IMG/VR virus record: IMGVR_UViG_2671180727_000014
Coordinates: 1 to 29,026 of that record
Direction: 5' to 3' (one strand)
Origin: a virus
Taxonomy: Duplodnaviria > Heunggongvirae > Uroviricota > Caudoviricetes
Length of the DNA stretch: 29,026 nt
Part shown: one piece after another, positions 1 to 18,952 of the stretch
Numbering within the stretch: position 1 is the first letter of the stretch
How the letters are laid out: every line of letters starts with the position of its first letter
Translations under genes and position numbers: made by a program
Notes under the pieces: generated by a model
Told to the model about the DNA's origin: nothing
Database searches by the model: none
Seen by the model: only the letters and a program-made list of their open reading frames with translations

Positions 1-3590
<3,590 letters not shown>

Positions 3591-10796: not shown

Positions 10797-11351
10797 CTAT
10801 TTGCGTTTGTCTTCTTTCAAGCGTGAAACTTTAATCATCTTATCGGTGATAGAAAGCAATGTTACACCCTCTTTTTCGTTCACAAAGCCTGCACCGTTAA
10901 TCACCATTACTAAACGATCCTTCCCTCGATAGACTTCATAATACTTGCCTGCACCACAGGTCTTTGTCTCAATACAGTCCATACCTGAGATAGCTTCTTG
11001 GTCGAAAATTCTGTCTTTCGTTGCTACCGGTTTTCCGTACTCCCTTGTCATCATTTCACCGATCTGCATGAACGTATACTTACCGACATTTGTCGTTAAA
11101 GACGATTCAACCTTTCCATCAATGAGATTTCCATGCGTATGTGGTTCCTGTTCATTCGGTGCATTTTTATCTTGAAGAGCGAATACCTCAATACTGGGTG
11201 TTTGCTCTTGGAACTGGGCTTTATAGTTCTGTGCAAGATCGCTTTTATCTCTACCTATTAAGGTAATTTTGTCGATCTCCGATTCGTTACATCCCGTCAG
11301 AGCGAGCATGATTACCAGAGAGGCAAGAATATTGAGGTTGCGCTTATTCAT
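10797..11351 (-). CDS. lipoprotein (signal peptide with lipobox LTGC), about 184 aa
   Basis: MNKRNLNILASLVIMLALTGCNE; GGAG about 8 nt upstream of the ATG at 11351 (ORF track starts at an upstream GTG at 11378); 8-nt gap to the HNH gene on the same strand. Confidence 0.65.
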   Translation of the reverse strand: MNKRNLNILASLVIMLALTGCNESEIDKITLIGRDKSDLAQNYKAQFQEQTPSIEVFALQDKNAPNEQEPHTHGNLIDGKVESSLTTNVGKYTFMQIGEMMTREYGKPVATKDRIFDQEAISGMDCIETKTCGAGKYYEVYRGKDRLVMVINGAGFVNEKEGVTLLSITDKMIKVSRLKEDKRK

Positions 11352-11478
11352 TGGCTTATCTCCATGTTTTTCTGCCACATCCTGTCACCCACATGCAGGC
11401 AGTCTAATGCTGCCGTTGCTAAATGAAGACCCAAAAGTGGTAAAACCATACCTGGAAATATTCTGGAGTCAACCCAGT

Positions 11479-11503
11479 AAAAAAGGGGCCGAAGCCCCTT
11501 TGA
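11479..11503 (-). terminator. intrinsic terminator downstream of the tRNA cluster (minus strand)
   Basis: Minus-strand reading gives AAAGGGGC-UUCG-GCCCCUUU followed by a U-tract (plus strand: aaaaaaggggccgaagcccctttgaatttt). Confidence 0.7.
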
Positions 11504-11575
11504 ATTTTGCGCTGAAAAAAGTGTTGCTAGGATGTTAGCAAGCTATGGTTAAGAACGTCTGCCGTAATTGTCTAT

Positions 11576-11653
11576 CACAGCGTTGAGCGGTCTGGTTTAT
11601 GTTAGCGGAGTCTTAATCTGGGTGATTAAAAGGCCAAACCGCTCAACGCTGTG
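11576..11653 (-). other. 78-nt structured element: perfect 15-bp inverted repeat (CACAGCGTTGAGCGG / CCGCTCAACGCTGTG) enclosing a 48-nt loop, directly 3' of tRNA-Ser
   Basis: Read directly; no tRNA T-arm motif, so not a canonical tRNA. Confidence 0.45.
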
Positions 11654-11655
11654 TC

Positions 11656-11742
11656 TGGCGGAGAGTAATGGAATCGAACCATCATCGCTTGCGCAATGGG
11701 ACGGTTTTCAAGACCGCTTGAGCACCATGCTCCCTACTCTCC
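11656..11742 (-). tRNA. tRNA-Ser (anticodon UGA), long variable arm, CCA encoded
   Basis: Reverse complement GGAGAGT...GCGGT-CTTGAAA-ACCGT...GATGG-TTCGATT-CCATT-ACTCTCC-G-CCA: 7-bp acceptor stem, anticodon loop CU-UGA-AA, T-loop TTCGATT. The D-arm is not fully resolved by hand. Confidence 0.7.
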
Positions 11743-11966
11743 GGCCGTTGTGGTGGCCGGTACTGAATCTCCGGCATACGGTGCAGCCAATTAGGACTAC
11801 GGACGATCACCGCTCGCGAAAGGGAAGATTTGCGGCCGCATTTCCCTAACATCCAAGAAAGCTATCGCATCAGTCTGCGAATCCACCACAACGGTAAGAT
11901 CACTACCTTTCGACCAGTCATTGTGCACATGAACGACGATTAACCGTAATGATCTTATCGTTGTAT

Positions 11967-12042
11967 TGGTGCCGGTTAGCGGACTCGAACCGCTGACATC
12001 CTGCTTACAAGGCAGGCGCTCTACCAACTGAGCTAAACCGGC
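11967..12042 (-). tRNA. tRNA-Thr (anticodon UGU), CCA encoded
   Basis: Reverse complement GCCGGTTTAGCTCAGTTGGTAGAGCGCCTGCCTTGTAAGCAGGATGTCAGCGGTTCGAGTCCGCTAACCGGCACCA: perfect 7-bp acceptor stem, anticodon loop CTTGTAA, T-loop GGTTCGAGTCC. Confidence 0.85.
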
Positions 12043-12046
12043 AATT

Positions 12047-12133
12047 TGGTGGGGAGTGATGGAGTCGAACCACCCGAGTCGCAATGACAGTAGATTTACA
12101 GTCTACCCCGCTGCCCCTACGGACTAACTCCCC
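12047..12133 (-). tRNA. tRNA-Tyr (anticodon GUA), long variable arm, CCA encoded
   Basis: Reverse complement GGGGAGT...GTAGA-CTGTAAA-TCTAC...GGTGG-TTCGACT-CCATC-ACTCCCC-A-CCA. Confidence 0.8.
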
Positions 12134-12138
12134 TAAAT

Positions 12139-12213
12139 TGGCGATGGTGGGTGGATTCGAACCACCGACCAGTTGGTTAACAGCCAACTGCTCTACCGCT
12201 GAGCTACACCATC
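12139..12213 (-). tRNA. tRNA-Asn (anticodon GUU), CCA encoded
   Basis: Reverse complement GATGGTGTAGCTCAGCGGTAGAGCAGTTGGCTGTTAACCAACTGGTCGGTGGTTCGAATCCACCCACCATCGCCA: 7-bp acceptor stem, anticodon loop CTGTTAA. Confidence 0.85.
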
Positions 12214-12421: not shown

Positions 12422-12478
12422 GTTGTGAAAACAGGCACCAATGGCAACAGTGGTTAAACCTACACAACAATCCTGTCT

Positions 12479-12602
12479 TCACAACGTTGAGGCCACTACT
12501 CCGATTGAATGTTTGCCCAACATGTTACATATCAACGCTCGCCGGTATCTCTGTGAATAGAACCTTAGAATTGATAAAAATGTAATGGCCTCAACGTTGT
12601 GT
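12479..12602. repeat. long-range inverted repeat: 16-nt arms (CACAACGTTGAGGCCA / its complement) separated by about 90 nt in a 780-bp ORF-poor region
   Basis: Read directly: ...cttcacaacgttgaggccact... at 12479-12496 and ...atggcctcaacgttgtgtg... at 12585-12602. Confidence 0.5.
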
Positions 12603-12763
12603 GCTGGCTAACCATACCAGCCGGGCTACGTCGCCGCTTTTTAACCCAGTATAAACGACATAATTGAACAAAATGACGTAACAGGATGGGCGGTCAGTGG
12701 CTAAGAATCCGGGAGTCATATGGAGTTGAAAATATACCAACCGCCCATTCTGTTACTTCATCG

Positions 12764-12787
12764 GAGGGAACATGAATGTTCCCTCCT
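12764..12787. repeat. 24-bp palindrome GGAGGGAACAT-GA-ATGTTCCCTCC
   Basis: Read directly; no flanking U-tract, so it looks more like a protein-binding site or RNA structure than a terminator. Confidence 0.5.
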
Positions 12788-12960
12788 GCGTTCTGCAATC
12801 ACACTCGCTCAGTGTGTCCCATTTCGGTAACGAGGCTGGAAACTGACCTCGCTGGTGTTTGGCTTATTAGGCTACTGCCAGATAGACTTCTTCGTTTGCA
12901 CTTGTATTTAAGTTCAAACAGTCGCGTCTCAACGAAAACAAAGTCATCTTATACATAAAA

Positions 12961-12982
12961 GATAAGTAAGTAAATACTTATC
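12961..12982. promoter_or_regulatory. palindromic site GATAAGTA-AGTAAA-TACTTATC
   Basis: 8-bp inverted repeat arms; member of the dispersed TAAGTA/TACTTA palindrome family. Confidence 0.35.
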
Positions 12983-17611: not shown

Positions 17612-18952
17612 TTAGGTAACGTCTAAGATTCGCTCAATGAAGCGCATTTGTTCGAGGTTTTGTTTAACGCGAATGCTGATCCCTCCCTGCTGGTTACGTG
17701 AACCAGCAAAGTAGAGACGAGCCTCTCCTTTCGCTTCTTCTTCTTCGGTTTTGTTGATCGTTATTACCAGGTCAGCAATACGTACTTTTTCGATGTTGTC
17801 GGCAGCGTGCATCATTGTGGCAACTTCTGACGCGCCACCTTCACGGTTTGTCTGCGATGCCGTGATACCAGCAACGTTGTGTTTGTCATAAAGAGCACGT
17901 AAGTCGGTATAGATACTACGTATGTTGGCGCGATCATCACGAAGGTCATAACTGGCACGCATCAAATCTGCATAGTCGACAACAACCATGTCAGGCACCA
18001 TGCCATTGGCTTTCATGCTGTTAAGCATACGATCCAGATCTGCCGGTGACATACTTCCTGACGGACGCTCAACAACCCACAAACTACCAATCCCCTTCGT
18101 GGCTCCCAACTCTGCCAACTTACGATGAACCTCATCGCGCCGTTCCACCAGCTTGGACATTTCTGTCTCCGACAATCTTGCATCAAAACGGTCGGATAAA
18201 ATGGTGGTGTGAACCTCCAGCGAGAGATACAGAACATTGTAGCCAGCAAGCGTTGCGTTTATGGAAAACTCACCCATTGCGGTCGATTTACCGGATTTAG
18301 CGAACCCCATGAAGAGCACCATTTCACGCTTCGCCCAGCCTTTTTGGTACAGCAACCTATCGAGCAGAGGGAGTCCAGTTGTAATGCTGTTTGGCACATA
18401 CTCCTCTGAAGCCTCATATTCACGCGCTTTCAATCGCTCACTTGCGGAGGTGTAGTAGTCATAGATTCCGGTCGCTTCGTTCGATCCAATCTGCTGAACC
18501 TTGGCCATGATTGCCATCGCCCCCTGAAAGTCGCCCTTCTCTTTCAGTTCAGCAGCCTTAATCAGAGCATCATCAAACGCTACGCTTTTTGCGAAGGTTG
18601 ATACCTGGTCAACCATGTACGAGGTATCAGACAATTTTTCTGCAAGGATGCGCTTAAACGCAGCAACAACATCGGCGAATAGTTCCTCACGGATAGTCTT
18701 ATCGCGTTTCGCACGCTTAAGCATATCCAGAACCGCAGATGAAGAGGGCGCGCTCTTGTACATACGGTAATAGCCCGAAACCATATTAACCAATATGGCA
18801 TTGGCCGCATTGGCAAATTGGCTAGGTACAACCAGATCTCCAGCACGAGTAAGAAACTCGTGATCACGACAAAAATAGGCCGTCAATCTGTTCTGAAAAT
18901 CTTCATCAAACTCTTCGGACAGCCCGCGTCCTGTATGGCAAAGTTCGGTCAT
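17612..18952 (-). CDS. DnaB-family replicative helicase, 446 aa
   Basis: C-terminal RecA-like domain with Walker A GFAKSGKST and Walker B-like region VVVDYADLM. Confidence 0.8.
   Translation of the reverse strand: MTELCHTGRGLSEEFDEDFQNRLTAYFCRDHEFLTRAGDLVVPSQFANAANAILVNMVSGYYRMYKSAPSSSAVLDMLKRAKRDKTIREELFADVVAAFKRILAEKLSDTSYMVDQVSTFAKSVAFDDALIKAAELKEKGDFQGAMAIMAKVQQIGSNEATGIYDYYTSASERLKAREYEASEEYVPNSITTGLPLLDRLLYQKGWAKREMVLFMGFAKSGKSTAMGEFSINATLAGYNVLYLSLEVHTTILSDRFDARLSETEMSKLVERRDEVHRKLAELGATKGIGSLWVVERPSGSMSPADLDRMLNSMKANGMVPDMVVVDYADLMRASYDLRDDRANIRSIYTDLRALYDKHNVAGITASQTNREGGASEVATMMHAADNIEKVRIADLVITINKTEEEEAKGEARLYFAGSRNQQGGISIRVKQNLEQMRFIERILDVT

Follow-up and report, generated by a model that had tools for sequence, protein, structure and literature searches.

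We analyzed a 29,026-nucleotide (nt) stretch of virus DNA (IMG/VR record IMGVR_UViG_2671180727_000014, positions 1 to 29,026; hereafter the window), in which an initial annotation had placed a four-tRNA operon at positions 11479-12213, together with a hairpin directly 3' of the last tRNA, a nearby tRNA-like stretch, and a terminator. Our best explanation is that this interval is the distal part of an untranslated minus-strand RNA operon of ~1.5 kb, in which the long hairpins (E0, E1, and E3) and a cloverleaf-shaped RNA (E2) serve as functional RNA structures instead of being spacers or the debris of tRNAs, and whose transcript would be cut by RNase P together with a duplex-specific nuclease. 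We assign this explanation, taken as a whole, a probability of roughly 0.55. All operon features are read on the minus strand; the initial annotation gave no strand. The hairpin and the tRNA-like stretch that it pointed out are real and represent conserved RNA modules of a partly known kind (an RNase III-type stem and a scaffold resembling the small RNA STnc100), which are undescribed as families. The tRNA operon itself is ordinary for the SSU5-like phage-plasmids to which the window belongs, and its most unusual feature is a leader resembling transfer-messenger RNA (tmRNA), which we refer to as the tag module.

ARAGORN identified exactly the four co-oriented tRNAs that had been listed, with the same isotypes and each with an encoded CCA end: tRNA-Asn (GUU; 12139..12213), a class II tRNA-Tyr with a long variable arm (GUA; 12047..12133), tRNA-Thr (UGU; 11967..12042), and tRNA-Ser (UGA; 11656..11742). 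The hairpin that follows tRNA-Ser, E3 (11576..11653), begins 3 nt past its CCA and was correctly positioned in the initial annotation, which had however given it a 15-base-pair (bp) stem, whereas the fold yields a 20-bp stem (19 Watson-Crick pairs and one U.G) enclosing a 38-nt loop with an inner 8-bp hairpin. Its minimum free energy is -40.1 kcal/mol (z = -9.67), and none of 200 shuffled sequences folds as well. Absence of the hairpin from relatives would have counted against the initial annotation, but E3 is present in Klebsiella, Salmonella, and Enterobacter relatives and is kept in all of the SSU5-like relatives examined. In the Klebsiella relatives, all 40 of the 40 arm bases are identical, whereas the loop diverges; the loop motif AAGACUCCGC is invariant. 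In Salmonella, Enterobacter, and K. oxytoca, two pairs have changed in a compensatory manner (U-A to C-G and G-C to A-U), and over 10 variants 99.5% of cells are paired, compared to 23-47% in slid controls.

E3 belongs to a long-hairpin (LH) family that we define here by a 17-23-bp stem with the base CACA[AG]C/G[CU]UGUG, a variable loop, and compensatory change. We collected 56 distinct arm pairs, including many compensatory variants, which yield the consensus ACAACAGGUAAGAGCAUU/AGUGCUCUUUCCGUUGUG. In enterobacterial phages, LH hairpins begin 0-3 nt past tRNA 3' ends or bracket other RNA modules. Two further members occur in the window. E1 (11888..11964; -27.6 kcal/mol, z = -4.57) begins 3 nt past the CCA of tRNA-Thr, carries the compensatory AGAUC/GAUCU in place of AGAGC/GCUCU, and overlaps the closing stem of E2, whose 5' strand includes the last 7 nt of E1 (11894-11888). 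The initial annotation had missed this second hairpin, as it had the full extent and cloverleaf shape of E2 and the structured leader. E0 (12480..12601; z = -6.73) is located upstream of tRNA-Asn, has a 20-bp stem (CACAACGUUGAGGCCAUUAC/GUAGUGGCCUCAACGUUGUG), and is kept, with variation, in pHCM2-type plasmids. Inspection of the sequence also revealed a closed 14-bp stem (GUUGUGAAGACAGG/CCUGUUUUCACAAC; 12422..12485) that shares GUUGUG with the E0 3' arm and occupies the place taken by E2 in other phages, but without the two hairpins of the E2 frame.

A duplex of ~20 bp is the classical substrate of RNase III, and the stems of E0 and E3 (20 bp each) and of E1 (19 positions with one A.C mismatch) all have this length. 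Likewise, the RNase III stems of rRNA operons, the T7 early sites, and the lambda late sites are long near-perfect duplexes of about two turns that bracket stable RNAs in untranslated polycistrons. The LH hairpins, as candidate RNase III substrates, differ from them in that both the CACAAC/GUUGUG base and the 100% arm conservation of E3 exceed what RNase III needs. Among the collected phage loci, a hairpin of at least 14 bp lies within 8 nt of 33 of 130 tRNA 3' ends, compared to 4 of 390 random positions, and it is mainly on this basis that we read the hairpins as signals for the processing or protection of tRNA 3' ends. Thus, of the three options that had been raised for E3 (a processing signal, a small RNA, or a degenerate tRNA remnant), the first is the best supported; E3 plus its conserved trailer may also constitute a small RNA. 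Phage ESCO13 (1534-2900 of the retrieved stretch) has a hairpin of 17-20 bp starting at 0 nt from the 3' end of each of four tRNAs (Arg, Ser-GCU, Thr, and Gly). Three of these four hairpins are rich in A+U and show no sequence relationship to the CACAAC family, which indicates that the placement of a long hairpin just past a tRNA 3' end is more general than the LH family. In phage lambda (NC_001416), an LH hairpin at 44784-44863 lies directly past the 6S/tR' terminator and is followed by a degenerate E2; the annotated lambda orf-64 overlaps this hairpin. It should also be noted that perfect T-arm-like sequences, AAAGGUUCGAUUCCUUU and GAGGGUUCGAAUCCCU among them, occur in the loops of some LH hairpins (e.g. 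in phage Magnus, ~2024-2114 of the retrieved stretch) or at the spot just past the tag module (five loci). Apparently, tRNA-like inserts can sit inside LH hairpins.

The tRNA-like stretch that had been placed at about 11745-11835 is a real structure, except that it comprises only the 3' half of E2, a structured RNA of 150 nt (11745..11894) delimited by folding and covariation. An 11-bp closing stem (11894-11884 with 11755-11745) is followed by the junction GAU, a 5-bp hairpin termed P2 (11880-11865; loop GACUGA), a variable core of 89 nt, and a second 5-bp hairpin termed P3 (11775-11756; loop AGAUUCAGUA), which stacks directly on the closing stem. As modeled, the topology is that of a tRNA with the core in place of the anticodon arm and with P2 and P3 as D-like and T-like hairpins. 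The two loops are also complementary to each other, ACUGA (11874-11870) with UCAGU (11766-11762) in the window and GCUGA with UCAGC in the family; one position of this interaction covaries (G:C 45, G:U 8, A:U 3, with 3-4 mismatches). Together with this position, covariation is found in all three helices: across 15 sequences, 96.3% of cells are paired and 8 pairs are altered on both sides, while slid controls reach 26-54%. E2 ends 2 nt ahead of tRNA-Ser, and in Klebsiella phage SCNJ1-C it ends 5 nt ahead of tRNA-Arg. Consequently, RNase P cleavage at the tRNA 5' end would define the 3' end of E2.

The E2 of the window is 97.5% identical to those of phages P7 and D6 and 75% identical to that of Klebsiella phage BUCT_49532. 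BLAST also located the E2 frame in Jedunavirus, N4-like Gamaleyavirus, Klebsiella siphoviruses, the P22-like phage IME10, and Taipeivirus, as well as at least two copies in phage P1. A pattern anchored on the invariant 5' bases of E2 retrieved at least 120 viral contigs, which provided 117 instances. These represent 60 distinct frames, and their cores, 32-162 nt in length, fall into at least 32 unrelated types. Scanned genome-wide, the pattern specifies 17 bases and ~100 of 120 matches arise by chance; species-representative genomes contained 22 full E2 frames, nearly all in Enterobacterales. E2 resides in same-strand tRNA clusters in 38 of 107 cases, only 4 opposite-strand tRNAs were found in E2 loci, and in 12 cases tRNA-Ser(UGA) follows at a fixed offset of a few nucleotides. 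Elsewhere, it lies between Q antiterminators and holins or downstream of CI-like repressors. An LH hairpin is located directly upstream of 74 of 142 E2 copies and shares GUUGUG with the 5' strand of the closing stem, and therefore the hairpin and the closing stem must either compete or form in sequence. Short hypothetical proteins are annotated over E1/E2 elements in several records, including a 174-nt coding sequence in phage P1 (2513-3325 of the retrieved stretch), BI095_gp54 of phage Tyrion, HYP92_gp204 of phage Magnus, and others in the BUCT610 and nithesis loci. These open reading frames (ORFs) are probably spurious.

The E2 detection rule is strand-symmetric and handles G.U and A.C alike. 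Read on the tRNA-sense strand, the E2 frames contain 71 G.U versus 11 A.C, from which it follows that this strand is the one whose transcript folds, and the LH hairpins upstream of E2 similarly contain 90 G.U versus 39 A.C. This asymmetry bears upon the main rival to our explanation, in which the hairpins and the E2 frame act mainly as DNA, i.e. as portable homology or recombination linkers for the swapping of cassettes (tRNAs, cores, and morons), with any RNA structure being incidental. Mosaic breakpoints do fall at hairpin edges. Similarity to a second isolate of Escherichia phage CMS-2020a (SCU-175) ends exactly at 11576, while 11904-11633 is ~96% identical to P7 and D6, which are unrelated P1-like phages, and this similarity stops inside the E3 5' arm at 11633. 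Moreover, the arms are constant and the loops and cores variable, the modules are common to unrelated phage families, and the spacer between tRNA-Thr and tRNA-Ser varies in length, from 8 nt in Cyrano (order Asn-Thr-Ser) to 224 nt in the window (order Asn-Tyr-Thr-Ser) and ~450-490 nt in P7, D6, and SCU-175. However, an excess of G.U over A.C, both in E2 and in the upstream hairpins, is unexpected for a site in duplex DNA, and the same can be held against the linkers for the compensatory changes within short internal hairpins and between loops, the strict co-orientation with tRNAs, and the abutment to tRNA ends at 0-5 nt. We consider a primarily DNA-based role unlikely, albeit with appreciable weight, and it is compatible with a role as RNA.

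Two other readings fare considerably worse against the pattern of pairing. The first is that the E3 hairpin and the tRNA-like stretch are simply decayed tRNA genes, as the initial annotation had offered for E3. Their location in a tRNA cluster, the cloverleaf-like topology of E2, and the T-arm-like sequences in some hairpin loops of other phages would all fit such an origin. Nevertheless, an Rfam search over E1, E2, and E3 gave no match at the gathering score or at E<=10, including to any tRNA model; the conserved loops GGCUGA and AGAUCAGCA are neither D nor T loops; E3 has its own conserved sequence and covariation; and 60 distinct E2 frames hold their pairing through compensatory change, which is the opposite of decay. 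We find this reading scarcely credible. The second is that the hairpins control transcription, either as attenuators or as nut/boxA-type antitermination sites that shield a long untranslated transcript from Rho. The rrn boxA is UGCUCUUUAACAA, and the LH 3' arm consensus GUGCUCUUUCC resembles it and is followed by GUUGUGGUG and a 5-bp hairpin; furthermore, the transcript is indeed long and untranslated, and the late leader is where the elements are found in lambdoid phages. In those phages, however, Q already provides antitermination at the late-leader site, E3 carries CGCUCAAC in place of the boxA-like bases, and no U-tract follows E1 or E3. The specific boxA/nut candidate, suggested by GUGCUCUUU, was rejected because its bases are paired within the stem and covary (AGAGC/GCUCU to AGAUC/GAUCU in the window), which argues that the pairing, rather than the sequence, is under selection. 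Overall, a transcriptional role is very unlikely.

Several further identities for these elements were also rejected. E2 is not a plausible substrate for aminoacylation, as the overhang left after RNase P cleavage would end in ...GCC in the window and is not kept in other E2 copies. The CUGAUG in the P2 loop is reminiscent of a hammerhead ribozyme, but there was no match to a ribozyme model and the variable core speaks against a catalytic center. An integron attC site is excluded by the misfit of its core sites (GTTRRRY/RYYYAAC) to GTTGTGG/CCACAAC and by the lack of an integrase common to the hosts of the element. Lastly, the elements are not known to resemble the CRISPR repeats of E. coli or Klebsiella, as a repeat mimic acting as an RNA anti-CRISPR would. 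Exact-sequence searches of the literature likewise returned nothing relevant to these elements.

No family in Rfam 15 matches the E2 of the window, and the nearest is STnc100 (RF02076; a gammaproteobacterial or prophage small RNA candidate with a gathering score of 47 bits). The E2 of the window has no STnc100 match at E<=10, while the top STnc100 relative, the third unit of phage P1, reaches a sub-threshold 33.9 bits. Inspection of the STnc100 consensus revealed the same plan as E2, in which a ..UGGUG/CACCA.. closing stem leads through an AAU junction into a 5' hairpin and a variable middle separates the latter from a 3' hairpin that stacks on the closing stem, and both occupy prophage 'moron' locations (PMC12370729). 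The hairpin sequences are unlike those of E2, however, and the complementary GCUGA/UCAGC loops are specific to E2. STnc100 is an orphan small RNA candidate with no known function; in Stx2 phages, one copy is located 75 nt past stx2, and the RNA has been detected in vesicles by reverse transcription quantitative PCR (PMC12370729). In the Qin prophage of E. coli K-12 (18455-18485 of the retrieved stretch), GUGGUGAAUGCGGCUGAGCGCACGCGG lies directly past the dicF terminator and corresponds to the 5' frame of an STnc100-like E2 variant. The same stretch follows tRNA-Ser in P7 and D6.

E3 is succeeded by a conserved 3' trailer (11503..11575), which we delimited by conservation and folding. It contains a nearly invariant single-stranded block, CGGCAGACGUUCUUAACCAU (11564-11545), that does not differ between the relatives from E. 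coli, Enterobacter, Salmonella, and K. oxytoca and has one additional U in the two full-length Klebsiella versions. A weak hairpin (11542-11523) and a run of six U (11520-11515) come next. The operon ends, as the initial annotation had proposed, at an intrinsic terminator with a UUCG loop (11479..11498): sequence and folds both give a G+C-rich stem-loop, GGGGC-UUCG-GCCCC (11498-11485), followed by six U (11484-11479), and the structure is kept in relatives. A consensus scan did not report this terminator, probably because the scan extends the stem into the flanking A and U runs; due to these runs, the terminator is potentially bidirectional. With its terminator end, its position past the last tRNA, and its nearly invariant single-stranded block, this conserved trailer is reminiscent of the 3'ETS(leuZ)-type small RNAs, i.e. 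tRNA 3' external transcribed spacers that reportedly act as stable RNAs (Lalaouna et al., 2015). The two share no sequence similarity, and the trailer of the window is headed by a 20-bp hairpin. By analogy alone, the window also resembles the tRNA cluster of phage T4, in which structured non-tRNA RNAs (species 1 and 2, also known as RNA C and D) are co-transcribed with phage tRNAs. The T4 RNAs are released by tRNA-processing enzymes and have no known function.

From the geometry and positions of these elements, we infer the following order of events. RNase P would cut the 5' end of each tRNA, thereby also creating the 3' end of E2, and a duplex-specific endonuclease, most likely RNase III, would cut the long hairpins. 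The hairpin cuts would leave short 3' trailers on tRNA-Thr and tRNA-Ser for exonucleases to trim, and would free GUUGUG, thus allowing the E2 closing stem to form. The expected products are four tRNAs, a stable E2, and a stable trailer that runs from the E3 3' arm through the CGGCAGACGUUCUUAACCAU block to the terminator; E2 and the trailer may accumulate and could act in trans.

There are several points that weigh against this explanation. The identity of the nucleases is presumed from geometry and position, and the invariance of the E3 arms between E. coli and Klebsiella goes beyond the needs of RNase III, which hints at a sequence-specific partner. Similarly, the coaxial stack of E2 is longer than the 12 bp of a tRNA, with 16 bp in the window and no fewer than 14 bp across the family, and therefore recognition of E2 by tRNA enzymes is not implied. 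The loop-loop pairing, which depends upon a single covarying position, should be considered suggestive. With respect to lambda, the title of Daniels et al. 1988 (Virology 167:568; reference 49 in PMC7547250) announces sites of RNase III processing within the Q-mediated late transcript, but the title does not place these sites at the lambda LH hairpin. Lastly, the cryptic prophages DLP12 and Qin of E. coli K-12 contain no intact E2 copies, having only the relic beside dicF, and consequently the existing K-12 data sets are uninformative.

The leader of the operon presents a distinct puzzle. At approximately 12700..12950, a weak match to the permuted tmRNA model RF04321 (22 bits, E = 0.028, under the gathering score of 47), together with homologues and covariation, defines the tag module. 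Its frame (12899-12864) reads GCA AAC GAA GAA GUC UAU CUG GCA GUA GCC UAA UAA, which specifies ANEEVYLAVA followed by two stops; the SsrA tag of E. coli is ANDENYALAA. Homologous modules occur in P1, P7, D6, N4-like phages, Klebsiella siphoviruses, Taipeivirus, and at least 120 IMG/VR viral contigs retrieved with a 25-base anchor, and Rfam tmRNA models score them at 22-32 bits against a gathering score of 47. All 128 pattern-anchored units consist of exactly 10 codons plus a stop. Together they contain 18 peptide variants of the form AN[DE][DEN]xx[LM][AMVI][AV]A, with synonymous differences present. The one unit checked for a start, that of SCNJ1-C, lacks a canonical start codon in frame, and its frame is interrupted by a UAG 8 codons upstream. 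The stop codons sit inside a hairpin loop and two H-type pseudoknots lie 3' of the tag, both of whose stems covary (CG 35/TA 29 and GC 45/AT 16 for pairs of PK-A, CG 48/TA 11/GC 5 for a pair of PK-B), as does one pair of H5 (GC 37/AT 35). In many cases, the module is preceded by the 3' arm of an LH hairpin, and thus the arms bracket modules in both senses. The tag peptides were not found in the papers searched.

The similarity to tmRNA (SsrA, including its two-piece permuted forms) is therefore one of a start-less 10-codon frame running from GCA AAC GA to an Ala/Val-rich end, an A-rich stretch ahead of the first codon, a stop in a hairpin loop, and pseudoknots thereafter. In contrast to tmRNA, the phage module is only ~190 nt, lies upstream of tRNA genes, and has neither a tRNA-like domain nor a CCA end; ARAGORN found no tmRNA in the window and, in tmRNA mode, no such domain (acceptor G3.U70, T arm, and 3' CCA) in 252 loci. 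Same-strand tRNAs lie within 1.5 kb downstream of 86 of 153 tag units, and no tRNA-Ala is among them. The frame is a putative tag template that may be translated. One could envision that E2 and its bracketing hairpins supply the tRNA-like partner of the tag module, such that together they constitute a tmRNA-like RNA, either split or rearranged, that would serve to tag or rescue ribosomes in the course of infection. This would account for the uniform 10-codon frame, the stop in the hairpin loop with its two covarying pseudoknots, the cloverleaf shape of E2, the hairpin arms that also bracket the tag module, and the conserved order of tag module, hairpin, and E2, with E2 located 152-208 nt past the tag in compact forms. 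Conversely, E2 has no alanine-type acceptor, canonical T loop, or free CCA end, neither ARAGORN nor the Rfam tmRNA models recognize the loci at threshold, and the tag lies outside of E2, whereas that of tmRNA sits inside the tRNA-like domain. In addition, E2 lies within 900 nt for only 52 of the 121 tag units, and there are many copies of E2 that lack a tag. In our view, a split tmRNA is distinctly unlikely, and we continue to favor processed structural modules as the explanation for E2 and the hairpins.

With regard to the tRNAs, tRNA-Asn, tRNA-Thr, and tRNA-Tyr score 75.5, 76.5, and 39.7 bits with RF00005, above its gathering score of 29 bits. tRNA-Ser falls under it, its top Rfam match being the tRNA-Sec model (46.6 bits against a gathering score of 47), and it is atypical in having a short D arm, a 6-bp variable arm with a GCAA loop, and G73. 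It is nonetheless genuine, since its stems have changed in a compensatory manner between E. coli and Klebsiella (acceptor GGAGAGU/ACUCUCC to GGAGGAU/AUCCUCC; D stem GAGC/GCUC to GGGC/GCCC) and it is ~90% identical to genes annotated as tRNA-Ser in rV5-like phages. According to a remark in the D6 record, tRNAscan-SE assigns no amino acid to the D6 counterpart. The P7 record (AF503408) does not annotate tRNA-Ser(UGA), which ARAGORN finds at 3024-3110 of the retrieved stretch, and in the D6 record (MF356679; 4024-4729 of the retrieved stretch) the annotated tRNA strand is opposite to that given by ARAGORN. The Asn and Thr genes, their order, and their untranslated operon context are all similar to those of the C1-controlled ban operon of P1 and P7; relative to the tRNA sets of P1-like and SSU5-like elements, the window adds tRNA-Tyr, which was not found in Cyrano, P1, P7, or D6, and the atypical tRNA-Ser(UGA). 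Two of the four tRNAs read codons that are frequent in the ORFs of the element: ACA (tRNA-Thr) and UCA (tRNA-Ser) make up 34% and 21%, respectively, of the codons for their amino acids. The corresponding values in E. coli are roughly 13% and 12%, and this heavy usage fits the usual codon-supply explanation of phage tRNAs.

The surroundings of the operon are those of an SSU5/pHCM2-like phage-plasmid, with CobT, a tyrosine integrase, and an ATP-dependent DNA ligase as neighboring genes. The window around 11479-12213 is 99% identical to CMS-2020a, and 11479-11966 is 100% identical to an E. coli plasmid. Among SSU5-like plasmids, tRNA genes were previously reported for pECOH89, for which the tRNAscan-based report names only Thr and Asn, and for AnCo3 (Asn) (PMC3999498, PMC5427195). 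A tentative promoter for the operon, TTTACT-17 nt-TAAGAT (12946..12974), was read from the sequence in a stretch that is kept in pHCM2-type relatives; it falls under the threshold of a consensus scan, while SCNJ1-C has a good TTGACA-17-TAGATT ahead of its homologous tag module. Another promoter-like sequence, TTGACT-16-TATGGT (11445-11472, minus strand), lies directly downstream of the operon terminator and probably drives the next minus-strand genes (10797-11378 onward).

The composition of the operon differs among its relatives. In pHCM2 and the Enterobacter and K. oxytoca plasmids, tRNA-Asn is followed directly by the E3 hairpin, whereas Klebsiella relatives have the order Asn, hairpin, Ser, and E3-type hairpin. 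The E. coli plasmid CP059946 (1206-1950 of the retrieved stretch) contains Asn, Thr, a hairpin, a small closed stem, a hairpin, E2, Ser, and E3, and its E2 has a 46-nt, P1b-type core that differs from that of the window. From this arrangement, we can conclude that cores and units are exchanged between otherwise near-identical operons.

Overall, a small set of conserved, covarying RNA modules makes up the 'spacers' in phage tRNA clusters, in the lambdoid late leader, and in the leader of the P1 ban operon, and current annotation ignores these modules or overprints them with hypothetical ORFs. Recognizing these modules would clean the annotation of hundreds of phage, prophage, and plasmid records and provide a testable model for the maturation of phage tRNAs from long untranslated transcripts. 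It would also tie STnc100, an orphan family in Rfam, to a wider class of scaffold RNAs that are shaped like tRNAs and have exchangeable cores. A broader proposal, which we regard as fairly unlikely, is that phages of Enterobacterales (P1, P7, D6, SSU5/pHCM2-like plasmids, N4-like phages, Klebsiella siphoviruses, Taipeivirus, and lambdoid prophages) carry an unrecognized modular RNA island consisting of a tmRNA-derived tag module, E2/STnc100-like scaffolds, tRNAs, and bracketing processing hairpins, which in its strongest form would have the tag module operate with E2 or another partner as a phage trans-translation system. A tag template lacking a tRNA-like domain would, if translated, represent a new route by which phages interfere with ribosome rescue and proteolysis. 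In the strongest form of the proposal, phages would either place a degron of their own specification onto host or phage nascent chains or subvert the SmpB-tmRNA system during infection.

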